Notes: generated from the sequence alone by a model not told the origin. A stretch of DNA of 64,000 bases from a virus (IMGVR_UViG_2751185783_000001:47168-111167), one strand, 5' to 3'. Counted from the first letter of the stretch, positions 1 to 26,514 are shown. Numbers and translations: made by a program.

Positions 1-7
1 AAACGGG

Positions 8-1660
8 ATGAACGTGTCGCCGTTCTTGCAGATGAAGACGTGGCTGTCGTCGATGCTCGAACTCGACGACGGCATGCTTGACCTTGCCTACCAGCCGAAG
101 CGCCTCGACGACGGCAAGACCGACACCGAAGTGCTGATCAACCACGGGCTGGTGACCCTGTTCGACACCCACCCGCTCGGTGAGGCCGTCAAACACCCCG
201 GCCCGTCGGGCGTGTACACCGACGCGAAGGGCGCCCGGTGGGGGTTCGCCGGCCGGGACCTGCGCGGCAACCCGGTCTACCGGAGCCGGTGGACGCCCGG
301 GCAGGCCGGTGGTGGTGTGCGGGTGGGTGTGACCGGCATGGGCAAGTCGGTGGTGACGCAGGTCGGCGCCTACAACGATCTGCTCCTCGGCATCCTGCCG
401 ATCATCCACGATGCGGGTAAGAACGCCATGGACTTCGTGGACTTCTACGGCATCATCCCGGTGGGTCACACCATCGAACACCGGGAGATCATCCGGGAGT
501 CGTTGTGGCACGAGATGAAACGACGCCAGGCGTGGATCAACACGCAGACCGCCGTCGGTCTGGGTGGCATGGAAGTCACCGCCGACCCCACCTGGGATCC
601 GGTCCGTGGCGGCCCGCCGATCCGGTGCACGTGGGAGGAGTTCCACATGCACATGTCCGACCCGAAGTTCATTCAGTACCTCGGTGCGCAGGTCCGCCTT
701 CAGCGGGCCACCGCCATCATGGCCGAAGGCGCCTCCCAGGGGTCGGGCCTGGCGGACTGGGGTGACCAGCAGATGAAAGAGCAGATGACCGAAATCTCGC
801 TGGAGATGATGCGGGTCTCCGACCACACCGCGAGGCTCGCCGGCTACCAGGGCGGGCTGATGCCGTCCACGCTGCCGTCGCTGCCCGGCATGATGGTCAG
901 CCAGGTACTGAAGGGAGATCCGGTCGCCTACCGGTCGGCGTTCATGCCCCGCGACCCGAGTAACCCCGAGTCGCTGATCTACCGGCTGAAGCGGCCCAAC
1001 GGCACCCCCGAAGGCGAACAGATCGTGTTCGCCCCGCAGCTGCCGCCGGAGACCATCGCCGTGTTCAAGGAGCATGGACTGATGGACCTGTGGGAGAAAG
1101 GCAAGACCAAGTCTGGTCGAGAGCAGCTTCAGTCCGAAGCCGACCCGGTCGAGTCGACGGTCATGCCCGACATGCTCGAGGCGATCCTCGGCGGGCAGCC
1201 CACCCCGAAGCCGCGGCTGCGCGCCGATGAGGTCGTCTTGGGCCTGCTGAAGAACGAGGACGACAACGGGCGCGGCGGACTCACCCAGCAGCAGATGCTC
1301 GCGTCGCCGTGGTGGGCGCAGATCGAGGGGGAGTGGACGAAGAACGCCGGCATCCCCTCACACACCACGATCGGCCGGGCCTGCAAGAACCTGTCCGGGC
1401 TGGAATCCCCGCTGATCGGCTCCGACGAGGGGACCCCCGCCCGCTGGTCGCTGCTGCCCGCAGGGTCGGCACGCGGGGAGCAGGCGTTGACGCTGCTGCG
1501 GTCAGCCGGCGTACTCGGCAAGCAGGCCCAATCCCAGACGCGGGCGTCTGGGATGGACATCGCAGGCCTGGAACGGCAGGCGATGCTCGAGGCCGAACAG
1601 GCAGCCCTGATTCAGGAACTGGTGCGGGAAGCTGCCGGGCTGACAGGACCGGGGCAGTGA
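8..1660 (+). CDS. FtsK/SpoIIIE-family (actinomycete TraB-like) DNA translocase, probably 5'-truncated by the window edge
   Basis: Walker A GVTGMGKS, IIHDAGK strand, EMKRRQ helix, Walker B-like RCTWEEFH, ASQ motif, C-terminal winged-helix-like region; frame is open back to the window start. Confidence 0.75.
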   Translation: MNVSPFLQMKTWLSSMLELDDGMLDLAYQPKRLDDGKTDTEVLINHGLVTLFDTHPLGEAVKHPGPSGVYTDAKGARWGFAGRDLRGNPVYRSRWTPGQAGGGVRVGVTGMGKSVVTQVGAYNDLLLGILPIIHDAGKNAMDFVDFYGIIPVGHTIEHREIIRESLWHEMKRRQAWINTQTAVGLGGMEVTADPTWDPVRGGPPIRCTWEEFHMHMSDPKFIQYLGAQVRLQRATAIMAEGASQGSGLADWGDQQMKEQMTEISLEMMRVSDHTARLAGYQGGLMPSTLPSLPGMMVSQVLKGDPVAYRSAFMPRDPSNPESLIYRLKRPNGTPEGEQIVFAPQLPPETIAVFKEHGLMDLWEKGKTKSGREQLQSEADPVESTVMPDMLEAILGGQPTPKPRLRADEVVLGLLKNEDDNGRGGLTQQQMLASPWWAQIEGEWTKNAGIPSHTTIGRACKNLSGLESPLIGSDEGTPARWSLLPAGSARGEQALTLLRSAGVLGKQAQSQTRASGMDIAGLERQAMLEAEQAALIQELVREAAGLTGPGQ

Positions 1661-1665
1661 CCGTT

Positions 1666-1902
1666 TCAGGAACCGTGGCGCTGTACCCAGATTTCGAGGT
1701 AGGCGCTTTCGGGCTGGAAGTCGCTGTAGACCCAGCGCCGCTTGCGGACAGTGCCCGCAAGGTAGGCCTTCTTGAGGTCGTGATGGTCGTGCGACCTCAA
1801 GAAGATCTCATCGCCGGTGGCCGGCACGCCGAAGGTCGTGTCGAGGGTGTACTTGCCACCGACCGGTTTGCCGTCGGCGTTGTCGATGAGGAATACCTGC
1901 AT
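1666..1902 (-). CDS. hypothetical protein
   Basis: 78-aa ORF with normal protein composition. Confidence 0.55.
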   Translation of the reverse strand: MQVFLIDNADGKPVGGKYTLDTTFGVPATGDEIFLRSHDHHDLKKAYLAGTVRKRRWVYSDFQPESAYLEIWVQRHGS

Positions 1903-1956
1903 GAGCTGAGGGTAGCGGCCGGATCGCTGTATGACGATCTGGCCGCTACCGGAGAA

Positions 1957-2448
1957 TCAGCGGGAGAACCGGGCCCCAACGTCGAGGCGCAGCGCCGTGA
2001 ACCCGCGGTTGATGTGCGCCACGACTTCGGCGAGCGCCTCCACCCGTACCGGTTCGGTCAGCCCGTCCACAACCCGCCGGGCATGTTCCTGCCCGCCGTC
2101 GTTCAGCGCGGCGAACACTGTCCCGGCGCCGGAATGGGCGAACGCCAGCTGGGTGATGACGTCCCGGCTGTTCGGACTGTGGGCGACCGCGGCGACCGCA
2201 ATGGTGTGCGCGGTGAGGATCGGATCGGCGGCGACCTCGGCGAGGTGCTGGCCGTAGCAGTCCTGATTCCACAGGTTCGCGGCCACGGCGCGCCAGATCG
2301 GGGTGGTGTCGCGGTCCCACATGCCGTTACCGGGCAGCCGCCGGTCGTCTCCGTATTCCATGGAGTCGGCCCAGTCGGCGCCGGTGGGTGCCGGGAATGG
2401 GTGGGTAGGGTCGCAGGGCAGGCCGGTGATGGGTTCAAAGTCGGTCAC
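1957..2448 (-). CDS. hypothetical protein
   Basis: 163-aa ORF with normal composition. Confidence 0.55.
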   Translation of the reverse strand: MTDFEPITGLPCDPTHPFPAPTGADWADSMEYGDDRRLPGNGMWDRDTTPIWRAVAANLWNQDCYGQHLAEVAADPILTAHTIAVAAVAHSPNSRDVITQLAFAHSGAGTVFAALNDGGQEHARRVVDGLTEPVRVEALAEVVAHINRGFTALRLDVGARFSR

Positions 2449-2489
2449 GGATCGACGCTACTGGCTGCCTTCTTCGGGTGGGGTGTCCG

Positions 2490-3191
2490 ATGACTGCCAC
2501 GATCCCGCCGCATGCGGATGTGCGGGACTGCCGCCTGTACCGGTTCCGCGTCTACCACCCCGACGACATGGGCCTGCCCGCCGGGCAGCGGCGGATCGTG
2601 CTGGGCTACATCGGCGAGACCGTGCGCATGCCCATCGCGAGGCTGATCGAGCACCTGTATGACCAGCCGTGGGCGGACACGATCGTGGGCTGGGATGTCG
2701 ACCCGCGGGTCTTCGCCGGCAAGGACGCGGTGCTGGCGGCTGAGCGAGTGGCGATCGAGACGGAGCAGCCGCTCTACAACGTTGAGCACAACCGGGGTAA
2801 CCCGTACCGGATTCCGCCGCCGCTGGCGATCCGGCAGCGGCGGCAGCGGGACGCCACCGACCAGGCCCGGCCGCGGTGGGTGCATCCGGACGACCGTGGT
2901 GGTGCGACCCGGGCACCGGCCCGGCCGCGCGCGGCGCAGCCTCCGGTAGTCAAGCCGTGGTCGTCGCGGCGCAAGCACCTGACGGGGCTCGGCGCGGGCT
3001 GGGCGGTGTTGTCGGCCGCGTCGTGGATCGTCCTGGCGACGCAGGGGCTGCTCAACCTGGAGACGTTCGGGGTGGTCACGGTCGTGGCGCTGGTAATGAC
3101 GGTGTGGCTGTGGGCGGGCGTGCCGGTCAGCCGGAAGGGCCGGCGGAAGGCGAAGTCGCGGATCCGGCGCCGGTTGCGGGCCCGGCGGTGA
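2490..3191 (+). CDS. GIY-YIG nuclease domain with two C-terminal transmembrane helices
   Basis: RLYRF...LGYIGET...ARLIEH...AAERVAIETEQPLYNVEHN, then two hydrophobic segments and a basic tail. Confidence 0.75.
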   Translation: MTATIPPHADVRDCRLYRFRVYHPDDMGLPAGQRRIVLGYIGETVRMPIARLIEHLYDQPWADTIVGWDVDPRVFAGKDAVLAAERVAIETEQPLYNVEHNRGNPYRIPPPLAIRQRRQRDATDQARPRWVHPDDRGGATRAPARPRAAQPPVVKPWSSRRKHLTGLGAGWAVLSAASWIVLATQGLLNLETFGVVTVVALVMTVWLWAGVPVSRKGRRKAKSRIRRRLRARR

Positions 3192-3454
3192 CCCACCCGG
3201 GCTGGTGTGAGCAGTGCGAGTCCGGGCCGGGCATGTTGCGGCACCGGTCGCGTCTGGTCCGGGTGGGTGCCCGCACGCAGTTGTCTGACCGCGGTGTGGT
3301 GTCTGTCCGGTTGTCGTCGACGGGGCATGGCCCGACATGGCTGGAGGTGCGGGTGGCGCACCGGATCGTGGCGACCGCTGAACTCGGCCTCGAGGACGCG
3401 GCGGTGCTGCGGGACGGGCTGACCTTCTTGTTGCACGCGGCGGGCCCGTCGTAG
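3188..3454 (+). CDS. small Cys/His protein (HPxWC...HxS type)
   Basis: GTG overlaps the upstream TGA; VTHPGWCEQC...RHRS. Confidence 0.6.
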   Translation: MTHPGWCEQCESGPGMLRHRSRLVRVGARTQLSDRGVVSVRLSSTGHGPTWLEVRVAHRIVATAELGLEDAAVLRDGLTFLLHAAGPS

Positions 3455-3550
3455 CCGCTTTGCCCGTACCTGTCGGGTGTGCGGATGGTGCTGGTCCGGG
3501 CGTCGTGGCGTAGGCCGGGGTACACATGCACCCCGGCCTATCGTCAGGAG

Positions 3551-3781
3551 ATGAACGATCACCGTCCCGCCCCAGGTCAGCCTCGTAGGAGCCCGAACGC
3601 AGGCCACGCTTGGGGCGACCCGGAAAGAGGCGGTGCGGTCACTGGAGGGTCGTCGCCTGACGGATACGTGTGGGTCAACGTGCAGCGGGCCACTGGCCTG
3701 ACGGCGCGGCTCGCCCCCGACCAGGCTGAAGCGCTCGGTGATCAACTGTACGTGTGGGCGCGGCAGGCCCGCGGCCGGTAG
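3551..3781 (+). CDS. hypothetical protein
   Basis: AGGAG directly before the ATG; followed by a terminator-like hairpin. Confidence 0.5.
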   Translation: MNDHRPAPGQPRRSPNAGHAWGDPERGGAVTGGSSPDGYVWVNVQRATGLTARLAPDQAEALGDQLYVWARQARGR

Positions 3782-3798
3782 TCCGAGACGCAGAGATG

Positions 3799-3846
3799 GC
3801 CCCGCCCCGGCCCGAGAGCGAATCTCAGGCAGGGGCGGGGCTTTCT
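3799..3846 (+). terminator. intrinsic terminator
   Basis: GCCCCGCCCCGGCCCGAGA-gcgaa-TCTCAGGCAGGGGCGGGGC followed by TTTCT. Confidence 0.7.
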
Positions 3847-3917
3847 GCTGTTCACGGGGCACCGGAGTCGTAGCCGGGCAACTATGATCGCCGATCAACC
3901 TGATCAGGGGAGGCGGC

Positions 3918-4268
3918 ATGCGCACCACCGTCAAGGAGAACGTGCTTCGCCGGATCCCGGCGTTCGCCCGTGGCCGGCACCCGGACGACATCGGCTGGGC
4001 GCAGATCCTGGCCGCAACCGTGGCCGAGATGCTGTTCGTGGCCGCGCTCAAAGCGGTCGGCCTGGTGGTGCTCGTGTGGATCGTGCACACCCACTGGTGG
4101 CCTGCGGTGCCCGAGCTTGAGTATCCGGTTGCGGTGGCGGTCATGGTGCTGGTCCGGGCGCTCACGTTGCCTGCCTCGTGGCACAGCGAAACGCCCCCGC
4201 CCGCACCTGGCTCCCTGGCGGGGGAGCGCAGACGCGAGCGGGGACACACGGTGCCGGGCGGGGTGTGA
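3918..4268 (+). CDS. small membrane protein
   Basis: GGGGAGG RBS; two or three hydrophobic segments. Confidence 0.65.
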   Translation: MRTTVKENVLRRIPAFARGRHPDDIGWAQILAATVAEMLFVAALKAVGLVVLVWIVHTHWWPAVPELEYPVAVAVMVLVRALTLPASWHSETPPPAPGSLAGERRRERGHTVPGGV

Positions 4269-4314
4269 CTCGCAGAAACCGCGGACCCGCCCGGCGCGAT
4301 CAGGGGGACGGCCG

Positions 4315-4662
4315 TTACTCGTACGGATCCGGCGTGGGGCCGGTTGGTCCGGCCGGGGTGACCTGGGCGCGGGTGAGGAGCATCAGCACCGCCAGCACGA
4401 GTCCGTTGACCGCGCCGACGGTTTCCTGCGAGACGTGCAGGCCGTAGCCGGCGAACAGCGCCGCCGCCGCGGTGACCGCGTACGTGAATGCGGCGGGCGC
4501 GATCGGCCGGACGTGGATGGCGTTGATGACGCCGAGCCCGGCGTTGAACGCGGCGACGATCAGCGCGGCCTGCTCGGCGCTCAGCCAATCGAAACCAAAC
4601 GTGACGATGAGGCCGAGGGCGGCGCTGAGCACGCCGAGGATCAGGGTGGGTTCACGGCGCAT
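4315..4662 (-). CDS. putative holin (4-TM actinophage type)
   Basis: MRREPTLILGVLSAALGLIVTFG...RAQVTP; four hydrophobic helices; same strand as the lysis cassette. Confidence 0.65.
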   Translation of the reverse strand: MRREPTLILGVLSAALGLIVTFGFDWLSAEQAALIVAAFNAGLGVINAIHVRPIAPAAFTYAVTAAAALFAGYGLHVSQETVGAVNGLVLAVLMLLTRAQVTPAGPTGPTPDPYE

Positions 4663-4734
4663 GCGATCTCCAAGGGGTCTGTGTGGGTGGCTGTGTGGCA
4701 GGCGGGTCCGGCACAGGGCGAGTAGGGTCCGCAT

Positions 4735-4968
4735 GTGGCGGAAGATCAAGACGTGGACCCGGTGTGGGAATGGGTCAAAGCCGAAGCCGACGCCCATCAC
4801 GGCGGGGACCGGAAAGCCGCGGTCCGGGCGATCCTGACCGCCGCGTACGAGTCCGAACGGCGGCCCGGGGACCCGTGGGCGTACCTCGAAGCCCGGCAGC
4901 GCGGGCGGCCCGGCTCGGCCCGATTCTCACCGGCCGGTGCTGACCCGGTCGAGGGTGAGCCCTACTGA
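4735..4968 (+). CDS. small putative DNA-binding protein (RHH-like)
   Basis: PVWEWVKAEA...RKAAVRAIL helix pair. Confidence 0.45.
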   Translation: MAEDQDVDPVWEWVKAEADAHHGGDRKAAVRAILTAAYESERRPGDPWAYLEARQRGRPGSARFSPAGADPVEGEPY

Positions 4969-5140
4969 TCGTGGCGGCCGGACAGTGCCAGCACCCGTCA
5001 CAGTTCGTCCAGGTCGATGGCGAGGAACAGGCGCAGCCGCATCCCGCCTCCCGTTCCGGTTACACCCGGCCGGCACTCAATCCGCACCCGCCCGGCACCG
5101 ATCAGGTGGAGGACCGGTCGGTTCGAGTGCGGGAGTTGTC

Positions 5141-5362
5141 ATGCCGAAAGAACTGCTGGCGGGCCTGTTCGTGTACGGGACGCTCGGCGCTCTCGCGCTG
5201 TGGGCGCAGTACCTGTTCATCGCCGCAGCGGTACGCCGGGGGATTCTGACCGCTCAGAAGGTCCTGGATCGGGAGGCGCAGCGACGCCCGGTACCGCCGA
5301 AGACGGCTCCGACCGTACCTGGGGCGCCCGGTCAGGCGTGGCTGCCTCAGCATCAGGGTTGA
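5141..5362 (+). CDS. single-TM membrane protein
   Basis: GGGAG RBS; hydrophobic N-terminus ending AAAVRRGI. Confidence 0.6.
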   Translation: MPKELLAGLFVYGTLGALALWAQYLFIAAAVRRGILTAQKVLDREAQRRPVPPKTAPTVPGAPGQAWLPQHQG

Positions 5363-5365
5363 CCG

Positions 5366-5596
5366 GTGCTGCCGGTTGCGGAAGCCGCCGCGAAAGGGCC
5401 GGGCGTGGCGGGGCTGCTGCTGTGCGGCGTGTTCACGATCCTCGGGGCGCTGCTGTTCTACTGGCTGATCGCGGCGTCCGTATGCCGGGGGATCGAGCTG
5501 GCGCAGCAGCGGGCGAAGATGCGCGCCCGGAAACGGGCGGGTGTGTCTTTGCGGAAACAGTTCGCGGAGGACTGGGAGGAGAGGCGGAAGCGTTGA
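5366..5596 (+). CDS. single-TM membrane protein, similar to the preceding gene
   Basis: TM segment followed by IAASVCRGI and a basic tail. Confidence 0.5.
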   Translation: MLPVAEAAAKGPGVAGLLLCGVFTILGALLFYWLIAASVCRGIELAQQRAKMRARKRAGVSLRKQFAEDWEERRKR

Positions 5597-5634
5597 GCCC
5601 CAGGCTTCTGCGCCCCATGTCACCCTCTCGGAGG

Positions 5635-5677
5635 TGTCTCTAGTCAGCTATAGACATAATCTCTAGCTCGCTATAGA
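5635..5677. promoter_or_regulatory. tandem near-palindromic operator sites
   Basis: TCTCTAG-N3-GCTATAGA at 5637-5654 and 5660-5677, upstream of an HTH gene. Confidence 0.7.
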
Positions 5678-5715
5678 TTTGGTGCATCAGGTTCCCGCCG
5701 ACCACGGAGGACACG

Positions 5716-6117
5716 ATGCCCACCTACACCGTCGTGATCGAAGCCAGCAACAACGACGGCACCATCTGGCAAGCGCTCGCACCCAGCGAAACCGTCGAAG
5801 ACGACGCCACCGCCGAAGACATCGCCCAGTGGACCGCCAGCAACCAGAACATCGCCGAAGGCAACAACTGGCGCGTCCGCGTCTGGAACGGAGCCGACGC
5901 CGACATCCACACCACCCCGAACGCCGAATACGTGGCCGGCGAAGATGACCTGATCGCCGAACTCCGGATGGCCCGGCTTCGGATTGCCGAATTGACCGAC
6001 CAGCGTGACAACCTCATCCAGCAGCTGATGGACACCGGCGTTCCGCGCGCCAGGATCGCGAACGCGGCCGGGCTGAGGGAAGCCCGTCTCTACCAGATCC
6101 GCGACGGCCGCCGGTGA
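5716..6117 (+). CDS. protein with C-terminal HTH
   Basis: GGAGG RBS; GVPRARIANAAGLREARLYQIR. Confidence 0.75.
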   Translation: MPTYTVVIEASNNDGTIWQALAPSETVEDDATAEDIAQWTASNQNIAEGNNWRVRVWNGADADIHTTPNAEYVAGEDDLIAELRMARLRIAELTDQRDNLIQQLMDTGVPRARIANAAGLREARLYQIRDGRR

Positions 6118-6166
6118 GTTCCTGGACCGCAGGCCCCAATCCTCATCTTTCCGGAAGGGCTCTCAA

Positions 6167-6532
6167 ATGATCACGCACATCGTCTACATCGGCACCGCGC
6201 CGGAAGTCCTGTCCGGCAACTGCTACGACCTCACCATCCACCCGGTCACCCCGGTGGTCGTCGGTGTCGACGACGACAACAACGACATCATCCAGTACGA
6301 GCCCGGCGCGGACGTCGTGCTGAACACCGAACTGCCCGTGGCCGTCGGCAACGAACCCGACGAGGAGACGGGTGAGGAGCCGGTGACCCGCGCGATCTAC
6401 GAGGCGGAGCAGCTGGTGCAGAAGGCGGGCTATTCGCTGATCGATTTCGGCGGTACGGAGAGCGTCAACGATGAGGGCATCTGGTATGCGGAGACGAACG
6501 CGTTTTCCGCGTATCTGAGGTTCAACGGGTAA
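6167..6532 (+). CDS. acidic hypothetical protein
   Basis: GGAAGGG RBS, 121-aa ORF. Confidence 0.7.
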   Translation: MITHIVYIGTAPEVLSGNCYDLTIHPVTPVVVGVDDDNNDIIQYEPGADVVLNTELPVAVGNEPDEETGEEPVTRAIYEAEQLVQKAGYSLIDFGGTESVNDEGIWYAETNAFSAYLRFNG

Positions 6533-6549
6533 ACGGTTCGTGGATTGCG

Positions 6550-6574
6550 CGGCCCCCGCTTGGGGGCCGTTTCC
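6550..6574 (+). terminator. intrinsic terminator
   Basis: CGGCCCCC-gctt-GGGGGCCG followed by TTTCC. Confidence 0.6.
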
Positions 6575-6690
6575 ATGTGCGGGTTCGGTGGGGATTGCCG
6601 CAGCTCAGCCCGGGTGTTGGCGGCGGGGTGCGCCCACAAAGATCCACATAGGGCGTGGGAGAATCAGGAGGTCATAAATAGAGATCCCCG

Positions 6691-7479
6691 GTGAGTTCCC
6701 GCGAGGGAACCAACCGCAAGGTGGTGGAACACCAAGCGCACCGGGGCTGGACGCCTTACGAGGAGGCTTCCGATGGTTATTTTGTCATGCCCGCACTCTG
6801 TCCGCGTGCCTACGGGGGCAGCGGCGTGAAGCGGCTGTTCGACCTCGACAACGAAGAGATCCCGTTCATTCGGCGCTGGAACGCGCTCACCGCGGTTCTG
6901 CTGGTCGAGCCTTCCGTCAAGCTCGTCGCCCGCCTCGCCATGGACTTCGCCGACTTCGACGACGGCGCGTCGTGCTTCCCCAGCATCGAGATGATGACCC
7001 GCGAATCCGGGCTCAGTGACCGAACTGTCCGGAATGGCTGGGCCGTTCTTCGGGGACTCGGCATGGCCGTCCGGGTGTCCCGGGGCGGCTCGTATCGCGG
7101 ACATGCCGACGAGTACCAGTTGCAGATTCCCGACAACTGGCGAACATTGCCCCTGCTCGGACCTCACCGCCGCAAGTTCACGTGCCCCGGCTGCGGGAAC
7201 CTGTTCAACCCGGACGCCCACAGCATCCTCGCGGACAGGCTCAAGGGCAGCGCCAAGCCGGACGGCAGGCCGCGCGCGAAGGCGGGCGACGGCGTCGCGT
7301 GGATCATTGGGCGATTGGCGTTCTGCTCGTGGCCGAGCAGCACCGGCCGCAAGGGAAGCCGGGCCTGCACTGACGCGTGGGATGTGAAGCGCCGAGAGAA
7401 GGGCGAAAAGGTCTGGGATCAGACCGACGCCTCGGGGAAGTGGGCAGTGTTCTGGGAGGCGCAAGGTGATCCCTGGTAG
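6691..7479 (+). CDS. winged-HTH replication initiator-like protein with a Cys-rich C-terminal domain (start may be GTG 6826)
   Basis: KLVARLAMDFAD...SCFPSIEMMTRESGLSDRTVRNGWAVLRGLG matches the replisome-organiser HTH pattern; CPGC; iterons follow the stop immediately. Confidence 0.72.
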   Translation: MSSREGTNRKVVEHQAHRGWTPYEEASDGYFVMPALCPRAYGGSGVKRLFDLDNEEIPFIRRWNALTAVLLVEPSVKLVARLAMDFADFDDGASCFPSIEMMTRESGLSDRTVRNGWAVLRGLGMAVRVSRGGSYRGHADEYQLQIPDNWRTLPLLGPHRRKFTCPGCGNLFNPDAHSILADRLKGSAKPDGRPRAKAGDGVAWIIGRLAFCSWPSSTGRKGSRACTDAWDVKRREKGEKVWDQTDASGKWAVFWEAQGDPW

Positions 7480-7481
7480 GG

Positions 7482-7628
7482 CGGTAACGGTTACCGGATG
7501 GTGGTAACGGTTACCGGTAGAGGGTGGTAACGGTTACCGGACCCCCTGGCAACGGTTACCGCACCCGGTGGTAACCGTTGCCGACCACCTACTCATAGAC
7601 CAACTCATAAGACCAAATCATCAAACCG
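7482..7628. repeat. iteron array with adjacent A/C-rich tract (putative replication origin)
   Basis: GGTAACGGTTACC at 7483, 7503 and 7526; GGCAACGGTTACC at 7548; inverted GGTAACCGTTGCC at 7570; then ACTCATAGACCA-ACTCATAAGACCAAATCATCAAACC. Confidence 0.85.
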
Positions 7629-7688
7629 TGTCCCGCGCTGCGCTTCGCTTCGACGCGGGCGCGCACGACCGAAGGAGCGATGGGGGAA

Positions 7689-7711
7689 CTGTCCGGGACA
7701 GTCCCGGACAG
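7689..7711. repeat. perfect 11-bp inverted repeat
   Basis: CTGTCCGGGAC-A-GTCCCGGACAG. Confidence 0.8.
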
Positions 7712-7917
7712 ACTCAGGACAGGTGAGGCATCCAACCCAAACCCGCACCGGGAGTGAGCGATCCGACCGGCCCGTCGACTGCTTGCTCCCGGTGCGCCTT
7801 TGACCTTCAACCACGCACCGACGGAAGGTCAGCGTCCGGCTCGGCTGCCCGTCTACCTCCCGGCGGGCGGTGCGCAGTCTGCGAAGCCCGTGCGATGTCG
7901 GGTGCGAAGCTCGCCCG

Positions 7918-8211
7918 TCAGGTAATCAGCCCCTCCGGCCATGCCGGGGGAGGCGGTGGCTGCCCGTCGGCGATGTGCCGGCGCAGCGCACCGATGTAGT
8001 CGCCCTGGATGCGCTGGGTTCGCCGCAGGTCGGCGACCTCGCCCCGCAGGGCGGCGATCTCTTCTTGATGCTGGTCGATCATCTGCTGCCCGGCGTCCGA
8101 CCGCAGCTTCCGGTTCGACCCGCGATAGGTGAAGTAGGCGGCGGCGACCACACCCAGCAGCGTCAGCGCAGGGCCGAGGAGGCTCAGGAGCGGGTCCACG
8201 ACGGCTTCCAT
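7918..8211 (-). CDS. lysis-cassette TM plus coiled-coil protein
   Basis: N-terminal TM, coiled coil, PPPPPAWP end. Confidence 0.75.
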   Translation of the reverse strand: MEAVVDPLLSLLGPALTLLGVVAAAYFTYRGSNRKLRSDAGQQMIDQHQEEIAALRGEVADLRRTQRIQGDYIGALRRHIADGQPPPPPAWPEGLIT

Positions 8212-8612
8212 CCTCCCGGAATGGGGCGGCGGGCCGCCGGTGGGATCCCTCCCGCCACCAGGTAGACGAACGCGGCGAACGCCAGCCAGATCACCGCCGA
8301 CACGTAGCCGCGGTCAACCTGCCCGGCGATCCACCCGAACAGGGCCAGCAGGCCCCAGGCGACTTTCAAGGCGACGGCGGCCATGAACGCAACCGTGTCG
8401 TAGGTGCGGAACGCGTAGATCAGGCACACCGTCCCGACCGCACCCCACACGGCGGCCCACGCCACCAGGGGCAGGACGGAACCCATGTACTCGTAGAACG
8501 CGACCATGGGCCGGGTGGCGGTGAGGAGCCCGTAGCAGTAGACGGCGTCGAGGACGAAGAAGAAGATCAGGGCTGCGCCGCGCCGGCCGATCCGTTCGGA
8601 CAGGCCGCTCAC
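8184..8612 (-). CDS. 4-TM membrane protein (holin-like)
   Basis: hydrophobic helices; translationally coupled to the endolysin. Confidence 0.7.
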   Translation of the reverse strand: MSGLSERIGRRGAALIFFFVLDAVYCYGLLTATRPMVAFYEYMGSVLPLVAWAAVWGAVGTVCLIYAFRTYDTVAFMAAVALKVAWGLLALFGWIAGQVDRGYVSAVIWLAFAAFVYLVAGGIPPAARRPIPGGWKPSWTRS

Positions 8613-9445
8613 CGGGACGGGGCCGCAAGTTCACGCAGCGCCCCGACGAACGCAGCCTGAAGCTGGGCGGGGGTGACGTTGATGCCGGGCAGCAGCGGAG
8701 TGAGCGCCCGGGCCAGTGCGGTCTCGTCGATCAGGTCTTTCGCGGCGAGTGCCGCCACCCCGGTTTTGGCCTGTCCGGCGCTGTCGCGGCCGGCGACCGC
8801 CGCGTTGAGGATGTTCAGCAGGAACGAGTTGACCGTCCAGTGCGTGTTGGGGGTGCCGTCCGCGTTCTTCGACCCGGCCGGTGCGGGCACCACACCGTCG
8901 GTGCCGAGGACCGCGGTGGCGAGGGCGGCCCGCACATCCTGGTCCTTCAGCAGCGCCAGGAATTCGGCTTTGGTCATGGTGTCCTCCTCGGCGAGGCCCC
9001 ACGGCCTGACGTCGTTTTCTTGGGCGGTGGTGTAGCGGGCGGAGAAGTGCGCGTGTTCGGTGTGCGGGGACGCGCCGCTGTACGCGCGCCACGTCCAGCC
9101 CCACGACCGGGAGGCGATCCGCCGGTCGTAGATGATGTTCTGCAACCGGTCGTCGGCCCCGGCGCGATGCCGGTCGGCGATGGTCTGCACGATCCGGCCC
9201 ATCGACCAGCCGGCAGGCCACGGCCCGCTGGAGTCGACGTCGATCGCATGGACCTCGTCCACCGAGTCCGCATCCTTGCCGCGCAGCTTCGGCGACGACT
9301 CGTCCGGCAGATGATCGGAGGTGCCCGCCGCCTGGTGTGCCAGGTCGCCGATTGCCCCGTCTGACCGTTTGTCCCGGCCCGGCGCCAGGCGGTCGATCTC
9401 AGCGCGCAGGCACACCAGGCACGGCACGAGCACCCAGCCCGCCAT
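8609..9445 (-). CDS. endolysin, M15/LAS-like Zn peptidase
   Basis: SDGAIGDLAH...SDH...VHAIDVD...IIYDRRI...HTEHAHFS; lies between tail and membrane genes. Confidence 0.78.
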   Translation of the reverse strand: MAGWVLVPCLVCLRAEIDRLAPGRDKRSDGAIGDLAHQAAGTSDHLPDESSPKLRGKDADSVDEVHAIDVDSSGPWPAGWSMGRIVQTIADRHRAGADDRLQNIIYDRRIASRSWGWTWRAYSGASPHTEHAHFSARYTTAQENDVRPWGLAEEDTMTKAEFLALLKDQDVRAALATAVLGTDGVVPAPAGSKNADGTPNTHWTVNSFLLNILNAAVAGRDSAGQAKTGVAALAAKDLIDETALARALTPLLPGINVTPAQLQAAFVGALRELAAPSR

Positions 9446-9636
9446 CAGCCCACAGCCCTGTTCGCCTCGATCTGCCGCACCCGCCGCGCCGTCTCGATCG
9501 ACTCTTCGGCGACACTGTGATGCCAGTCGTCGTGGAAGACACGGCCTTTCTCCGGGACCGCCACACCGCACACCATGCACGGGTAGAGCAGTGTTCCGGC
9601 GGGCAGCGGGATCGGCCCGATACAAATCAGACTCAC
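9445..9636 (-). CDS. small Cys/His protein
   Basis: CMVCG...HDDWH; start and stop overlap the neighbouring genes. Confidence 0.6.
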   Translation of the reverse strand: MSLICIGPIPLPAGTLLYPCMVCGVAVPEKGRVFHDDWHHSVAEESIETARRVRQIEANRAVG

Positions 9637-9971
9637 GGCGCCTCCTCCGCGTCCTCGAAGCCGTCGCACGGGTCGCCGGCATGCGCCTCAGGGGAGTCGC
9701 CCAACGACACGACCGGCATCGGATCCGCGTCGAGGGGCAGCCGGTCCCAGTCGATGCGCCGTTCGCCCGTGGTCGGCCCGTGCGGGTAGATCAGGCTGTT
9801 GTCGTGGGACGTGTCGAGCAGCCACGTTCTATCGGGGCCGGGCAGATAACGCCAGGCCAGGCCGTTCAGCTTGTCGACGGCGAGGAACCCGTCCGGGTGG
9901 TCCACCGTCACGAGCTCGCCGCCGAGTGGGCCGCCCACGCAGCGGCGGTCAGGGGATGGAGAGGTCGACAC
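9633..9971 (-). CDS. hypothetical protein
   Basis: CVGGPLGG motif; GAGGAG RBS. Confidence 0.6.
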   Translation of the reverse strand: MSTSPSPDRRCVGGPLGGELVTVDHPDGFLAVDKLNGLAWRYLPGPDRTWLLDTSHDNSLIYPHGPTTGERRIDWDRLPLDADPMPVVSLGDSPEAHAGDPCDGFEDAEEAP

Positions 9972-16119: not shown

Positions 16120-19100
16120 TCACCCCCGCGCCATCACCGGTGTCGACCGGGCCGACTGGACCGTGCGGCGGGTGCCCGACAGCATTGCCGCCGCCACGCC
16201 GGGCGCCACGTCTCCGATGGCGGAGATGAGCTTTTCGAGGCGGTCGATGACCTGTTCCATCGTCGGCGCCGGGGTGACGGTTTCGTTGCGGCCGGTCCCG
16301 TTGTAGATGGGCGGGGACCAGCCGGGTTGCAGCCAGCCGCCGGTGTCCATGACGGGGAACTGTGACTGGCCCTTGCCGAATTTCGGCAGGATCGCGCCGA
16401 GGCGGGCCGCCCAGTGGTCGTGGGCGTTGCCGCCCGAAAAATTGTGCTGGTTCCACACTGCCCCGGTGTAGGTGTGCTTCCTGCCGTTGTGCAGGTTGTA
16501 CTGCTGATACGGGGTGATCAGCTCCTTGGTGATGTTGCGGTAGTGGTCGTAGATGTACTTCGCCACGCTCTTGTCCGGCGGCACATCCACGGCCCGGTCT
16601 GTGCCGTGATACGACGGGTTGCCGGACAGGGTGCGGGCGCCCGGCCGGAACCCGGAGATCAGCCGCAGCCCGGGGAACTGCGCGCGCAAGGCCCGCATCA
16701 TTCCCGCGCTGCCGCCGAACGGCGACGACCCGTTACCGGGGCCGGACGTGCCCGATGATCCCGGCGCGGCTACGAATCCGGTCACCTTGTCGACCGCGGC
16801 GTCCAGGAGCTTGCCCGGGACGGCGGTGACGAGTTTGCCCCACGGCAAGTCCTTGCCGGGCACCAGGTTGGTGAGGTTCCCGACGAGGGTTTTGATACCG
16901 CCGGCGGGGTCAGCCAGCAGACCCTTCGCCCCCGTGAGGACGTCCGATGCCTTGCCTCTGATCTTCTTCCACAGGTCCCCCAGGCCGTCACCGCTGCCGA
17001 TGATGCCGCCCGACTTGAACTGGCCAGACATGGCCCGGCGTACGGCAGGGACGCCGCCAGTACGGGCGGCCTGATTCATCGTGTTGACCCAGTCGGTGCC
17101 AACCGCACGCCCAAACTCGGGCCGCATGACCGGCTCGCCGCCGGACAAGTCGAGGGTGCCGCCGGTCGGCGAGTAGAACCGGTGGACGTCACGGCCCGGG
17201 GTGTAGCCGGGCAGAACACCGCCCTTCGCGAAGCCCTTTGGCAGGGAAATCTTGGCGGCTTCCTTGACCCCGAAGAACTTCGCGATCTTGTTGTAGCCGC
17301 CGATCAGTCCGCCGTTCAACACGGTGTTGACCACAAAACGGACTGGCTCTTTCGCCACGTCGGTCAACTTCGACCACGCCGTTTTGATCGCCCCGACGCC
17401 GGTGGTGAAAGCGTTCGGGATTGTCTTCGTGACGAATGTCTGGATCGGGGTGAACACGTTGTTCTTGATGGCCGTCCACACGTCACCCAGGCCGGTACGG
17501 ATCGCCCCGAATGCCGTGGTCACCTTCGTCTTCGCGGTGGCGAACGCGTTTGGGATCGTCTCCATCACAAACGTGCGCATCGGCGTGAACACATTCGTTT
17601 TGATCGACGTCCACGCCGACGACAGGCTGTTACGGATCTCCGTCCAGCGCGCGGACGCCTTCTCCTTGAGCTGCTGGAAGCCGTTCGGGATGGTTACCGT
17701 GACGAAGGTCTTCAGCGGGTTGAACACCTGCTGGACGAGTTGGTTCCAGGCGCCGGTGATGGCCTTGCCCGCGGCGTCGAAGAACCCGCCGATTTTCTTC
17801 GCCCAGCTGATCGCGGTGAGGATCCAGCCCTGGATGAGGGTGACCCACTTCTCCGCGTCGGTGATCAGTTTGCCCATGGCGGGCAGCCACACATTGACCA
17901 GCTTGCCGATGAATTCGCTGGCCATCGCCACCCACAGGCGGATCTTGTTCTGGTTCTCGGGGTCGCGCAGCCAACCCAAAACCCGGGTGAGGACGCCTTC
18001 GACGCCGCCGAGGAACGACCCGGAGGCTTCCTTCGACTGCGGGAACAGGATCGCGATGATCTCGCCGAAGATGCGGAAGACCAGCCCGCCGATCCGGAAG
18101 ATCTGATCCAGCGTCTTCGCGGCCCCGGCCATGAACGAGTCGAGCTTGCCGGACTCGTCCGCGCTCTTCATCCACGCGCCGAACTTGGTGAAGATCCCGC
18201 CGATCAGATCGCCGATGACCTGAAGGACAGGCTTCGCGCTGTCGCCCAGCCGGGCCAGCCCGTCGAACAGGCCCGGCAACCCGGCACCGATCCGGGACAT
18301 CATCTCGCCGAACCCGTCGACTGCGCCCTTCACGTTCTTGATGAATCCGGCCTCGCCGAACTTCTTGAATAGGCCGTCGCCGATGATGTTCAGCCGGTCC
18401 GCGAGCCCACCCAACGACTCCTTCAGGTGCGGAATCCACGTGTCCGCAAGCTTCTGCACCTGCCCGGACACGCCATCGAGGAGCCGGTCCTGCACGAATT
18501 TGCGCAGCTCCCCGAACGGCTCCCGCAAACCGAACAGAGTCTTCACCAGGTCGCGGGCGTTCGGGCTCAGCTCCGCCATCTGCTGGTTGAGTTTCTCCAG
18601 CGCGGACCCGCCGGCGAGCCCGGCCTGAGTGGACGCCTGCCCCAGTGCCCGCTGCGCCGCCGTCACCGCCTGCGACGCCTGCGCCAGCTGGTAGGCACCC
18701 TGACGCTGCTGGTTCTGCCTCGAACGGCGCGCCTCATCCAGCGCACGCTCAGCCGCCTCGACTTTCTGCGCCCCGGCGACCCGGGCATCCTCCGCGGCCT
18801 GCTGCGCCTTACGGACCTCCGCCTCAGCGGCTGCCACACCGCGGCGGGCATCCGCCACACCCTTGTCGGCCTGCGCGATGCGTTCCCGTGCCCGCGTGAC
18901 CTCGTCGGACCCCTCGACGCCCTTCTTGACGGCGTCCTGCTGTTCCGCCGCGAGGCGTTTGCCGCGGACGGCGAGGTCGTTGAGTTGGGCGACCTGCCGT
19001 TCGTAGGTGAGTTGCGCTTGGGCCTTCTGCTCGGCGGTGGCCTTCGGATCCGCGAGGACCTTGTTCAGGGCCTTCTGCGCCTCGGCCACATCCAGTTGGG

Positions 19101-20562
19101 CCTGCCGCTGGTCCAAGCCGTTGTTTTTGACCGCGCTGGCGAGGTCTTCGAGGTTACGTCGCGCGTCCTCCTGCGCCTCGGTCAGATCGCGGCGAACCTG
19201 CAACGCCGCCCGCTCGGCATCCGTCAACGCCAGCTGGGCGTCACGGACCCGTTGCCCGGCGGCGACGATCTGTTCCTGCGCGGCTTTGGCTTGGCGGGCA
19301 GCTTCTTGCCGGGCCTGACCGACCGCCCGTTCGGCGTCGGCGATCTGCTGCGCGGCACGACGGGACGCCTCCGCCAGGGTGGCGCGGGTGTTGGCCTGCG
19401 CCGCGAGCGCCGACTTCACCTGATCACTGGCGTTCGCGACCGCGTTCTGAGCGCCGGCGAACGACGCCGACGACTTCGCCGCCTCGTCCTGCGCCGCGAC
19501 CATCGCCGAGAAAGCGCCGCCGACCCCGCCCAACCCCAGCTTGAGAGTGAGCGCGCCAGCCGCCAGCCCGAACAGTGCCCCGGACGCGGCACCCAGCAGG
19601 CCGCCGACCGTGGCGACCACCGGGGCCAGCGCCAGAAACGCCACACCCAAACCGACTGTCGCCGCAGCACCGGCCAGCAACGCCGTGACAACCGCGCCGA
19701 TGGCCAGATTCAGGCCGCCCGTCGCCGCGGTCAGCGCGGCACCCGACGCCGCGGCCCCCACCATCGCCGTGCTGATCTGCCCGCCCGCCTGCACCGCGGA
19801 CTGGCCCAATGTCGAGAAGAACGTGCCGGCGATCCCGGACACGCCGGAGAACGCCTGCCCGAGCAGCCCGGCGACCGTGCCCGCAAGGGAGGTGACGCCC
19901 TGCTGCGCCCGGCCGGTGTCGACGTCCACATCGACGTCGACGTCCCTGCCGTCGAGCTTGTCGACCTGAGCGGTCAGGGCGGCCAGCTTCGCCACCGCAG
20001 CGGCAACATCGGCCTTGACCTGCACGCTCGGCGACTGCGCCGCGAGAGCCTGCAACTGCTGCTCCAGGTAGCGGACCTCGGCGACCGCCCGCCCGGCGTC
20101 CAGGTCCACGCCGATCGTCTTCGACGCGAGCGCCCCCAGCTGGGCGGACAGGTCCCGCAGCTGCTGCTCGGCCTTGTCTTTCGCCACCCCGACGGTGATC
20201 GGCGGCAGGGCCTTGGCGGCCTGCGTCAGCTGCTTTTTGAAACCGTCGGCGAACGACCCGCCGGACTCCTCACCGGACTTGCGGGTGCGGGTCTTGTCCG
20301 GGCCGACCGGCGCGTCCTTCGTCTTCTCACGCGCCCGGTCGGTGAAGCCCTTCGCGAACTCGTCGGCGACGGCCTTACCGATGTCGGCGCCGGACGCGGC
20401 CATGACCTTCGTCAGAGACTCGGCGAGGGACTTGCCCAGAGTCCGGCCTGCGGTCTTGCCGGCCTTGTCGAGGTCCCCGTCGAGAGCCCGTTCGGTGTCC
20501 TGCCGGAACGACGACGTGTCCGGCCGGATGCGCACGAAGGCGGTAGCGAGCGGGGTACCCAC
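16120..20562 (-). CDS. tape measure protein with C-terminal LAS/M15-like peptidase domain
   Basis: 1480 aa, Ala/Gln coiled coils, periodic W/F repeats, FAKGGVLPGYTPG, ISGFR...SYHGTDRAVD...HDHW. Confidence 0.92.
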   Translation of the reverse strand: MGTPLATAFVRIRPDTSSFRQDTERALDGDLDKAGKTAGRTLGKSLAESLTKVMAASGADIGKAVADEFAKGFTDRAREKTKDAPVGPDKTRTRKSGEESGGSFADGFKKQLTQAAKALPPITVGVAKDKAEQQLRDLSAQLGALASKTIGVDLDAGRAVAEVRYLEQQLQALAAQSPSVQVKADVAAAVAKLAALTAQVDKLDGRDVDVDVDVDTGRAQQGVTSLAGTVAGLLGQAFSGVSGIAGTFFSTLGQSAVQAGGQISTAMVGAAASGAALTAATGGLNLAIGAVVTALLAGAAATVGLGVAFLALAPVVATVGGLLGAASGALFGLAAGALTLKLGLGGVGGAFSAMVAAQDEAAKSSASFAGAQNAVANASDQVKSALAAQANTRATLAEASRRAAQQIADAERAVGQARQEAARQAKAAQEQIVAAGQRVRDAQLALTDAERAALQVRRDLTEAQEDARRNLEDLASAVKNNGLDQRQAQLDVAEAQKALNKVLADPKATAEQKAQAQLTYERQVAQLNDLAVRGKRLAAEQQDAVKKGVEGSDEVTRARERIAQADKGVADARRGVAAAEAEVRKAQQAAEDARVAGAQKVEAAERALDEARRSRQNQQRQGAYQLAQASQAVTAAQRALGQASTQAGLAGGSALEKLNQQMAELSPNARDLVKTLFGLREPFGELRKFVQDRLLDGVSGQVQKLADTWIPHLKESLGGLADRLNIIGDGLFKKFGEAGFIKNVKGAVDGFGEMMSRIGAGLPGLFDGLARLGDSAKPVLQVIGDLIGGIFTKFGAWMKSADESGKLDSFMAGAAKTLDQIFRIGGLVFRIFGEIIAILFPQSKEASGSFLGGVEGVLTRVLGWLRDPENQNKIRLWVAMASEFIGKLVNVWLPAMGKLITDAEKWVTLIQGWILTAISWAKKIGGFFDAAGKAITGAWNQLVQQVFNPLKTFVTVTIPNGFQQLKEKASARWTEIRNSLSSAWTSIKTNVFTPMRTFVMETIPNAFATAKTKVTTAFGAIRTGLGDVWTAIKNNVFTPIQTFVTKTIPNAFTTGVGAIKTAWSKLTDVAKEPVRFVVNTVLNGGLIGGYNKIAKFFGVKEAAKISLPKGFAKGGVLPGYTPGRDVHRFYSPTGGTLDLSGGEPVMRPEFGRAVGTDWVNTMNQAARTGGVPAVRRAMSGQFKSGGIIGSGDGLGDLWKKIRGKASDVLTGAKGLLADPAGGIKTLVGNLTNLVPGKDLPWGKLVTAVPGKLLDAAVDKVTGFVAAPGSSGTSGPGNGSSPFGGSAGMMRALRAQFPGLRLISGFRPGARTLSGNPSYHGTDRAVDVPPDKSVAKYIYDHYRNITKELITPYQQYNLHNGRKHTYTGAVWNQHNFSGGNAHDHWAARLGAILPKFGKGQSQFPVMDTGGWLQPGWSPPIYNGTGRNETVTPAPTMEQVIDRLEKLISAIGDVAPGVAAAMLSGTRRTVQSARSTPVMARG

Positions 20563-20583
20563 GGCACCCCCTCGACGGCTCTC

Positions 20584-20921
20584 TCAGGAGGGAAGGGTGC
20601 GGGAGAATTCGCGGGTCAACGCATCGTCGAGCCGGTCAGCGTGCAACGGCGCGTACAGGTCGTCGTCGAACTGCCGCATGATCCGGGCCCGGTCCTTGCC
20701 GTCCGCCATGACGAGGGCGTCCAGCAGCTGCCGCTTCAGGTAGGTGTAGACCAGGTTGCACAGCCGGCGCGGTGTCAGGCCGTCAAGCGGGCCCGCATCT
20801 GTTCCGCCGTCTCCAGGCTCTCCCCGTACCCCTGCACCAGACGCAAGGTCGAGGACCCCTTCGAGTTCGCCGATGTTGCGGGCGGCCCAGCCGAGGAGAC
20901 GGCGGGCCGCCGGGTAGGGCG
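20584..20921 (-). CDS. tail assembly chaperone, frameshifted C-terminal extension
   Basis: open -1 frame overlapping the chaperone from CGC CCT ACC and running up to the tape measure gene. Confidence 0.6.
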
Positions 20922-21245
20922 GGCGGTCACCAACTCGATGGCCTGCCCCACCACGGCCAGCAGGTCGTCCTCGTCGGCGGCGGTCTCGTCGGCGTGGTCG
21001 CCGAACCGTTCCCAGTCCTCCTCGACGATGCACGCCCTGAGGAGCTTGTACATGGCGGCCAGGGTTTTCATGCCGCCGGTTTCCTCGCCGGAGTCGGCCA
21101 TCGCCGCGAACCGCAGCAACGCCATCTTGCCGATCTTGTCGCGGAGTTTGAAGTGTTCACCCATGAACTCGATGCGCAGGTCGTCGACGAGTTCGATACC
21201 TTCGGCGCGGGCCTGGAGTTCGTGGACGTCGAGGACATCAGCCAC
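20775..21245 (-). CDS. tail assembly chaperone
   Basis: between major tail and tape measure genes; TARPT motif. Confidence 0.8.
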   Translation of the reverse strand: MADVLDVHELQARAEGIELVDDLRIEFMGEHFKLRDKIGKMALLRFAAMADSGEETGGMKTLAAMYKLLRACIVEEDWERFGDHADETAADEDDLLAVVGQAIELVTARPTRRPAVSSAGPPATSANSKGSSTLRLVQGYGESLETAEQMRARLTA

Positions 21246-21819
21246 GGATCGTCCCGGCGGTGTCGTACAGATAGGGGTCACCGTTCGCGTCCGGCTCGAA
21301 CTTGAAGTTGACGGGCAGGCCCGCATTGTCGGCGCCCTTACGGCGGCTGATGGAGATCGAACCGACCTGGAAGGCCTGCTGCGCGACGATCCGCTCGGTG
21401 GAGTCGCTGGACTCCCAGCCGATCATGCAGCGGATTTCCTGCCCGAGTGCCGGCAGTTTGTACGTGGTCCTCAGTGTCGCCCCCGAGCCGGAGGTGGTGA
21501 GGGTGCCGCCGTTGAAGACCCTGCGCATGTTCGTGGCGTGGATCTGCATCATCTCGAATTCCATGCCGACCGTGCGGCCGGTGGTGACGTTGGCGATGGC
21601 TTCCAGGTATTCGGCGGCCTCCACCTCCTCCGAGTCGAGTTCCACGGAGAAGTCGTGGCCCTCCCTCGTCACGCCGAGGAGGTTCCAGCCGACCGGCCAT
21701 GCGTCGGTGAACACCGACCCGGCCACCGTGTACGAGGGGAGGCTGGTGCCGAGGTTGGCGTACAGCAGCCATCCGGCGCCGAACGACAGGGCGTTCTTCG
21801 GCGCGACCATACTGGGCAT
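21238..21819 (-). CDS. major tail protein
   Basis: GWNLLGVTREG motif; GAAAGG RBS; synteny. Confidence 0.85.
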   Translation of the reverse strand: MPSMVAPKNALSFGAGWLLYANLGTSLPSYTVAGSVFTDAWPVGWNLLGVTREGHDFSVELDSEEVEAAEYLEAIANVTTGRTVGMEFEMMQIHATNMRRVFNGGTLTTSGSGATLRTTYKLPALGQEIRCMIGWESSDSTERIVAQQAFQVGSISISRRKGADNAGLPVNFKFEPDANGDPYLYDTAGTIRG

Positions 21820-21825
21820 GAAGAT

Positions 21826-21896
21826 CCTTTCCGGGGCGCTGCGCCCTGAAGCGAGGCATGACGAAGACCGCCGTGGCGTCACGCCAGGCGGTGAGG
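21826..21896 (-). promoter_or_regulatory. hairpin leader upstream of the major tail gene
   Basis: CCTC-ACCGCC-TGGCG tga CGCCA c GGCGGT-CTTCGTCATGCC...GAAAGG. Confidence 0.55.
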
Positions 21897-21919
21897 AGAA
21901 GTGCGAGAAAGGGGCGCGG

Positions 21920-23262: not shown

Positions 23263-23264
23263 GA

Positions 23265-23600: not shown

Positions 23601-23615
23601 GGATTCTCCTTCGGG

Positions 23616-26488: not shown

Positions 26489-26514
26489 CCGCGCACCCCC
26501 TCACCCCGTGCCGG

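Follow-up and report, generated by a model that had tools for sequence, protein, structure and literature searches.

Why should a phage integrated in a mycelial actinomycete carry, next to the end of its late genes, a block of membrane-protein genes built around an FtsK-type ATPase? This question is raised by IMGVR_UViG_2751185783_000001:47168-111167, a stretch of 64,000 nucleotides (the window), which corresponds to positions 153048-217047 of contig C269 in a Micromonosporaceae genome (G000; 10.3 Mb, ~69% G+C), where open reading frames (ORFs) were called by GC3-based gene calling. Window positions 1-7800 constitute the right half of a ~14-kb plus-strand block (C269:146730-160630), which contains a conserved cassette of membrane-protein genes and a 974-aa ATPase, referred to below as the translocase. 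The initial annotation proposed that the siphovirus, a TraB-type transfer region and a plasmid-like replicon together form a conjugative phage-plasmid. By analogy with TraB systems, the most likely reading, to which we assign a probability of about 40%, is that the cassette provides TraB-like translocation of double-stranded DNA (dsDNA) and conjugative spread of the element.

The siphovirus and the region with transfer-like genes are parts of a single element, since there is one pair of attachment (att) sites, a single integrase, an empty site in two relatives, no internal att sequence and a homogeneous G+C content. The integrated element spans 115,090 bp from attL (C269:103408) to attR (218594), and the window lies inside it. 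Its boundaries are marked by a perfect 97-bp direct repeat (C269:103408-103504 and 218498-218594; window -49639 and 65451), the two copies being 115,090 bp apart; ~70% similarity continues for ~90 bp past the identical core. The left copy is a continuation of a host HD-like gene whose 3' end has been displaced by element DNA, and the right copy, adjoining the integrase on the outer side, bears the original end of this gene. The insertion occupies the 3' end of the HD-like gene, for which the element has brought a diverged replacement end (~70% identity). The tyrosine integrase is located just past the right window edge and is the sole one on C269, where no large serine recombinase was found. 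In two genomes of the same genus (G305 and G314), the left and right flanks are contiguous, ~100 bp apart. A search within the element for a third att-like copy gave none, and the G+C content of its blocks varies only between 0.68 and 0.69. No tRNA genes were found near the element, and a scan for promoters and terminators gave no information in DNA of 69% G+C. The predicted unity of phage and transfer region thus holds, as does the statement that no host gene separates the transfer region from the phage late genes. Positions 1-7800 sit in the middle of the element; no att site was found between ~3.8 kb and the phage genes, the ends being at window -49,639 and +65,451. We regard this anatomy of the element as highly probable.

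The translocase gene starts 1,264 bp to the left of the window and is represented there by an ORF (2..1660, plus strand) cut by the window edge, which covers the motor (Walker A at ~326-349) and a C-terminal winged helix. The complete protein has one Walker A motif (GVTGMGKS at residue 531) and one motor domain. In its AlphaFold model (predicted local distance difference test score, pLDDT, 80.6), a beta/Zn-ribbon-like domain at the N-terminus is followed by long hydrophobic helices and a coiled coil; then come the FtsK alpha/beta motor, a linker that is disordered, and finally the winged helix. A Kyte-Doolittle scan and the long helices of the model place the hydrophobic helices between residues ~160 and 290, where they are predicted to form a membrane anchor. 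The motor (residues ~350-780) matches TcpA (Z 25.8), EccC (Z 24.1) and FtsK (Z 23.3), with Foldseek E about 1e-10, a concordant independent VIA search, and a sequence identity of 14-17%. Residues ~818-925 match winged-helix proteins (Z 10-10.8, root-mean-square deviation (rmsd) 2.8-3.0). A domain order of membrane anchor, hexameric-type dsDNA motor and C-terminal winged helix, as in FtsK and TraB, is supported by this model. In the family alignment, GxTGxGKS, WEEFH and RLQR..(A/S)TQG are invariant, as are four Cys/His residues close to the N-terminus; across 25 sequences the same holds for Walker A, Walker B and an ATQ-type motif. The winged helix (residues 818-925) diverges much faster than the motor (470-760), with 46 vs. 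82% identity between this translocase and that of L004, and within this fast-diverging domain a P-x-x-S-T-x-x-R-A-C helix is conserved across the family.

Searches of the translocase against Pfam, NCBIfam, PHROG, PADLOC and the PDB (sequence and profile) gave nothing beyond coiled-coil noise. Judged by sequence, the translocase is not a member of the FtsK_SpoIIIE/TraB family. The FtsK/SpoIIIE ATPase with a C-terminal winged helix described in the initial annotation therefore stands at the level of fold (Z 23-26; winged helix-turn-helix (wHTH) Z ~10) and falls at the level of sequence family (no PF01580). An exhaustive profile search of 1.84 billion representative proteins identified only 85 that match the translocase family at E < 0.001. 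Approximately 30 homologs, all unannotated, come from Actinoplanes, Catenuloplanes, Pseudosporangium and metagenomes, and a full-length homolog is present in 3/300 family genomes. The closest language-model neighbours are actinomycete clusters automatically named conjugative DNA transfer proteins (0.93-0.94), which is a lead only. The translocase profile aligns with a PF01580-positive Micromonosporaceae protein (G238, 787 aa, 28 bits) over both motor and wHTH (hhalign probability 99.2%, E 1e-19). An L055-type ATPase bridges the translocase (E 3e-13) and the Tra protein of pIJ101 (weak, E 2e-4 in a database of only 37 proteins), Tra itself having a weak FtsK_SpoIIIE match (9e-10) and a C-terminal MarR-type wHTH. 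Chromosomal FtsK (G062) matches the family profile only in a low-complexity N-terminal region. These alignments suggest a homology chain from the translocase to TraB-type proteins, albeit a thin one.

Some members of the family are unusually long. LAGLIDADG/Hom_end homing-endonuclease domains occur in P0016 (1410 aa) and in a distant relative, the frame G288:C1:1195808-1199266 (L031), and suggest an intein. Two further members, P0047 (1353 aa) and P0048 (1241 aa), are likewise over-long, each with two stretches matching the translocase profile.

The cassette encodes, in order, a DUF2637-like 523-aa membrane/coiled-coil protein, a 175-aa transmembrane (TM) protein, a 297-aa six-TM protein, a 286-aa TM protein, a 150-aa helical protein and the translocase, with four membrane proteins encoded upstream of the latter. 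It is completed by a convergent 163-aa gene and a membrane-anchored GIY-YIG nuclease. The cassette diverges from a small helix-turn-helix (HTH) regulator and occupies the strand opposite to nearly all phage genes. According to tblastn of all element proteins against related loci, the 175-aa, 297-aa (up to 77% identity), 286-aa and 150-aa proteins, the translocase and the convergent 163-aa gene are colinear, and the 523-aa product of the first gene is related over its full length (23% identity, E 4e-7) to the DUF2637 protein that opens the distant cassettes. Colinear cassettes were found in G001/G015, G003, G239, L004, L053 and L056-L059, and more distantly related ones in L054/L055. In 8/11 contexts, genes for holin, endolysin, Sipho_Gp37, Dit or tape measure are recognisable on the opposite strand no more than 15 kb from the cassette. 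It recurs in about ten other large actinomycete prophages or viral contigs, which differ in their remaining genes, and there again converges on the lysis/tail genes of the phage. Relatives are present on IMG/VR contigs 103-131 kb long; one of these, a Catenuloplanes provirus of 127.7 kb (rated 98% complete), has the same order of left block, cassette, late and early genes. A divergent GntR regulator or a NUDIX gene lies beside the distant cassettes, and both are typical of actinomycete conjugative elements. The initial annotation envisaged that the traB-like gene would co-occur with this phage's head genes. TerL and portal were sought together with the translocase in four IMG/VR records and three genomes (G000 being the positive control in the genome search), and neither was found; the cassette is thus part of a mosaic lineage of phages and is not tied to this clade of head genes.

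The cassette proteins yielded little to family searches. Pfam (E <= 0.01) gave only coiled-coil noise on the 523-aa protein, and PHROGs gave nothing for cassette proteins besides the translocase. The 297-aa protein (model pLDDT 79.5) had no Foldseek match at E <= 0.001, its best VIA match (Z 8.8) being helical-bundle noise, and its ESM Atlas scores (0.79-0.81) are at noise level. A DUF2637 search of this genome returned one weak match, located elsewhere, and in the literature DUF2637 is mentioned in passing only.

The composition of the cassette and the fold of its motor also bear on type VII-like protein secretion, in which the translocase would correspond to EccC, the membrane proteins to EccD/EccB and the 150-aa protein to a WXG100-type substrate. 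EccC is one of the closest matches of the fold (269 residues aligned at an rmsd of 3.1), and the cassette has polytopic and single-pass membrane proteins as well as a small helical protein directly upstream of the translocase. Nonetheless, the translocase has a single P-loop domain vs. three tandem FtsK-like ATPase domains in EccC, its C-terminal winged helix and N-terminal Zn-ribbon indicate nucleic acid, no Ecc or WXG100 family was found among the cassette proteins by the above Pfam search, and the polytopic partner lacks an informative fold match. We consider protein secretion very improbable.

The membrane-anchored nuclease of the initial annotation was confirmed by matches to PHROG endonuclease families (E 1.5e-5 and 2e-5), by motifs visible in the translation and by a C-terminal TM helix. 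It has no Pfam match, and a PDB sequence search gave only unrelated matches at chance level (E 0.27 or worse). In the distant cassette L054, the gene immediately downstream of the ATPase encodes a protein 59% identical to the GIY-YIG/TM nuclease, which is also colinear in G003. As a conserved neighbour of the translocase, this nuclease fits a lysogeny-expressed exclusion or defence system, in which the two proteins would capture and cut incoming dsDNA of phages or actinomycete elements that are both integrative and conjugative (AICEs) at the envelope. Moreover, an opposite-strand cassette diverging from an HTH regulator resembles lysogeny-expressed accessory modules, and FtsK/HerA-fold ATPases occur in known defence systems, HerA-SIR2 and DndH being among the fold matches. 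On the other hand, PADLOC found no model on any cassette protein beyond coiled-coil noise, a YdjM-type hydrolase takes the place of the nuclease in L055, and a membrane apparatus of six to eight genes, equipped with a winged helix that reads sequence, exceeds known exclusion systems in complexity. We consider exclusion unlikely; if it were the function of the cassette, a new membrane-based type of defence would be at hand.

The stability of the cassette, which is old in this phage architecture and not a recent insertion, would also suit another role in the phage life cycle, such as spreading replicating phage DNA to hyphal compartments or sporangiospores (during lytic growth or carriage) or hindering FtsK-dependent septation or sporulation. 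FtsK-like genes have been noted in many Streptomyces phages, where they have been discussed in relation to host development without functional tests (10.1101/2024.02.16.580700; PMC13587820). However, tblastn (E 1e-5) of the translocase against 50,697 phage records gave no match, and therefore it is not the common phage FtsK-like gene; furthermore, the opposite-strand position speaks against simple co-expression with early or late lytic genes. Such a role appears quite unlikely.

A transfer system of the TraB type would also need a cis-acting recognition site, clt, in which 8-bp sequences are repeated. No repeat array was found at the 3' end of the translocase gene. The DUF2637-like first cassette gene of every related element (G001, G003, G239, L004, L054-L059) contains an 8-mer specific to that element, in 6-14 copies that share one orientation and are often spread over different codon phases. 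The G001 array consists of 13 copies of ACCGGACA in three codon phases, and the TGACGCAG array is common to G239 and L004. In 7/11 elements the 8-mer count is above that in all 300 synonymous-codon shuffles. The arrays are a real feature of the family, and their role as a putative clt site is unproven.

The second initiator-like gene and its iterons, which had been described as a plasmid-like replicon, are both present at the right end of the block, in its variable part (window 2.4-7.8 kb). The HTH_36 match of the initiator (E 1.9e-5, 24.8 bits) is just below the 25-bit Pfam cut-off. Its wHTH was matched in 26 phage records (annotated as primosomal or hypothetical) vs. one Micromonospora plasmid, all with <37% identity over approximately one-third of the protein, and no homolog was found in the related cassettes. 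The iterons begin right after the stop codon of the initiator gene and are followed by an A/C-rich 13-nt repeat (7587-7621). Initiator and iterons are best read as an additional origin of phage type rather than as a replicon for plasmid maintenance. The terms plasmid-like replicon and phage-plasmid are disfavoured, because the initiator mostly resembles phage O-like proteins, a tyrosine integrase has placed the element in the chromosome, and the search for ParB was negative for the element (ParB_N gave two places in the genome, neither on C269; ParA was not searched for).

The element has further replication genes. The first O-like initiator has iterons inside its own gene (43669-43800). To the left of the plus-strand block, the minus strand encodes an HTH protein, a D5-type primase-helicase, PolA, a second DnaB-like helicase and ~60 small genes. 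Ten copies of GTGATTGC are located within 180 bp (C269:116351-116531; L024:351-531), directly beside the 3' end of the second DnaB-like helicase gene. This third iteron-type array of the element is a candidate origin, centromere or transfer site. Four copies of AACTGTCCA (C269:144408-144495) between the PolA and D5 primase-helicase genes form a possible operator.

The element contains three arrays of the iteron type along with PolA, a D5-type primase-helicase and two DnaB-like helicases, as might be expected of a composite. It would consist of a packaged phage of ~57.6 kb (lysis end to attR) and a non-packaged partner of ~57.6 kb (attL to the iterons) that holds the cassette, an origin of its own and the replisome genes; virions would contain the right half alone. 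The two halves are nearly equal in size, and the closest sequenced relatives of the head genes (TerL 56%, capsid 40-42% and portal 33-36% identity) belong to Gordonia, Arthrobacter and Streptomyces phages of 36-71 kb. Against such a composite, the element has one integrase, one att pair and no internal att-like sequence, the Catenuloplanes provirus repeats its block order, and cassette relatives reside on contigs of 103-131 kb. A composite is accordingly a distinctly improbable arrangement.

The anatomy, the fold, the ends of the single element and the conserved position of the cassette beside phage lysis genes are shown by the above data and, with the homology chain and the 8-mer arrays, speak for TraB-like spread. 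We infer the substrate, direction and biological role of the translocase as follows. The cassette would form a membrane apparatus for dsDNA translocation; this apparatus would move the element's own dsDNA across septa or between hyphae; and the result would be a TraB/Spd-like spread of the element, independent of virions and additional to them. A fuller version would have a lineage of 100-130 kb temperate actinomycete phages with two routes, virions and a TraB-like pump that passes the genome straight from one hypha or hyphal compartment to another, in which the 8-mer arrays serve as the transfer site and the GIY-YIG nuclease opens circular DNA for threading; we put this forward only tentatively, as a doubtful extension.

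Several observations weigh against TraB-like spread. The translocase has no PF01580 (FtsK_SpoIIIE) match even at E 10, and its gene is not among the 27 places found by a six-frame PF01580 search of the genome, which include an AICE-like locus on C11. Its profile aligned directly with pIJ101 Tra reaches a probability of 22%, in the ATQ motif only, and tblastn against 72,556 plasmid records gave no match. The protein-secreting EccC is among the top fold matches, at a lower rmsd. BLASTP of the 297-aa protein against pIJ101 SpdB gave nothing (E > 3), Spd proteins being so poorly conserved that homology is a weak test. The element's own array, seven copies of CCTCACCG (C269:147620-147880, window about -5430..-5170), is in a single codon phase and marginal, as 16/300 shuffles reach this count. 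The 8-mer motif does not covary with the winged helix, since L054 and L055 share the motif and are 22% identical in that domain. Finally, packaging of all 115 kb, and hence two routes for one genome, is unproven, because the relatives of the head genes come from phages of 36-71 kb.

If the cassette does carry phage DNA from hypha to hypha, temperate phages of mycelial actinomycetes could do without an extracellular stage when they spread or establish lysogeny. The boundary between prophages and AICEs would be blurred, with a bearing on gene flow in actinomycetes that produce antibiotics. TraB conjugation also poses the open question of how the pore admits circular dsDNA, and a conserved membrane nuclease beside a TraB-like pump bears on it. 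The translocase family has no Pfam model and very few members, yet it combines a confident FtsK-type model with a conserved neighbourhood, and is therefore directly testable.

Table 1. Features of the cassette, the variable region and the phage genes (window coordinates unless a contig is given).
Feature	Position	Strand	Remarks
Translocase gene	C269:151783-154707; window -1264..1660	+	974 aa; C-terminal 552 codons in window (1..1660)
78-aa ORF convergent on translocase	1666..1902	-	No family match
163-aa conserved cassette gene	1957..2448	-	66% identity in G239, translocase-adjacent there too; no family match
GIY-YIG-like nuclease	2478..3191	+	C-terminal TM helix 199-217; motifs visible in translation
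116-aa membrane protein (2-3 TM), variable region	3918..4268	+	
Holin-like gene, 3 TM helices	4315..4800 (likely start gives 4315-4662)	-	phrog_9752 holin, E 3e-24
76-aa membrane protein, variable region	5366..5596	+	
133-aa protein, C-terminal HTH	5716..6117	+	phrog_686, E 5e-8
Second initiator-like protein (wHTH)	6691..7479	+	HTH_36; PHROG replication initiator/O-like/DnaD-like
Origin-like site, five 17-nt iterons	7480-7583	.	Palindromic core GGTAAC-G-GTTACC, spacing 20-23 bp
Late-operon end: 97-aa TM protein, 142-aa 4-TM protein, 357-aa protein	7918..9682	-	Converges on plus-strand block
Siphovirus structural genes	16120..37770	-	Tape measure to TerL
Tape measure	16120-20562	-	1480 aa
Major capsid	27577-28518	-	
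Mu-like protease	29015-30124	-	
MuF-ADP-ribosyltransferase fusion	30474-34169	-	
Mu-type portal	34179-36371	-	
TerL	36388-37770	-	
First replication module	41357..44221	-	O-like initiator 43103-44221, then DnaB helicase 41357-43033

The remaining genes are listed in Table 1. The holin-like gene and small membrane proteins noted initially among the transfer genes were recovered. Judging by position and TM content, we regard the end of the late operon as the lysis end; its 142-aa 4-TM protein has only the PHROG name minor tail protein (phrog_4026, E 6e-15), and the 357-aa protein has no informative family. In the head operon, the 1231-aa protein has a strong ADPrib_exo_Tox match in two stretches and occupies a MuF-type position between portal and protease. 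Three plus-strand genes of the left block (C269:135763-139639) encode an HTH_31-DUF5753 protein, a 435-aa HTH_31 protein and an alpha/beta hydrolase, and are candidate repressor and moron genes expressed in lysogeny.

TraB/clt/Spd transfer has been described in Streptomyces (PMC9513070, PMC3583192). Similarly to TraB/Tra of Streptomyces plasmids and AICEs (TraB of pSVH1, Tra of pIJ101), the translocase combines a predicted membrane anchor and an FtsK-type motor with a winged helix at its C-terminus, is encoded alongside small and polytopic membrane proteins, and resides in a mycelial actinomycete; a divergent GntR regulator, as in pIJ101, accompanies a distant cassette. It exceeds these proteins in length by ~200-300 aa, carrying a Zn-ribbon at its N-terminus as well as a coiled coil, and unlike pIJ101 Tra, with which its hhalign probability is only 22%, it has no PF01580 match. 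The cassette partners lack similarity to SpdB of pIJ101, and the cassette sits in a 115-kb prophage, whereas TraB plasmids and AICEs are 9-30 kb long. The same genome has an ordinary AICE-like locus (G000:C11:7093-11336), with a tyrosine integrase and a PF01580-positive 472-aa frame 3.5 kb off, as an internal contrast to the prophage cassette. The best structural matches of the motor are TcpA of the Clostridium plasmid pCW3, EccC and chromosomal FtsK; the partners of TcpA are a VirB4/VirB6-type set, which is absent here.

Phage genes and a tra locus have been combined before, in the Streptomyces plasmid-phage pZL12, for which PMC3583192 cites a tra requirement, and in pSLE1, whose synteny and phage-particle genes are covered by PMC4487206. 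pZL12, pSLE1 and the present element are all actinomycete elements with phage structural genes and a tra-type transfer locus, here a TraB-like cassette with a predicted transfer role. The size of pZL12 is reportedly ~90 kb. It is an autonomous plasmid carrying ParAB, in contrast to the integrated element without a detected ParB, and the translocase has no tblastn match in the plasmid or phage collections. With the FtsK-like proteins of Streptomyces phages it shares a phage-borne gene of the FtsK superfamily and a mycelial host, but it has no match in the 50,697 phage records and is set apart by its membrane anchor, winged helix and multi-gene membrane cassette. What is new compared with all these systems is a divergent family of unannotated translocases, encoded in a membrane cassette that is conserved among large integrative prophages.

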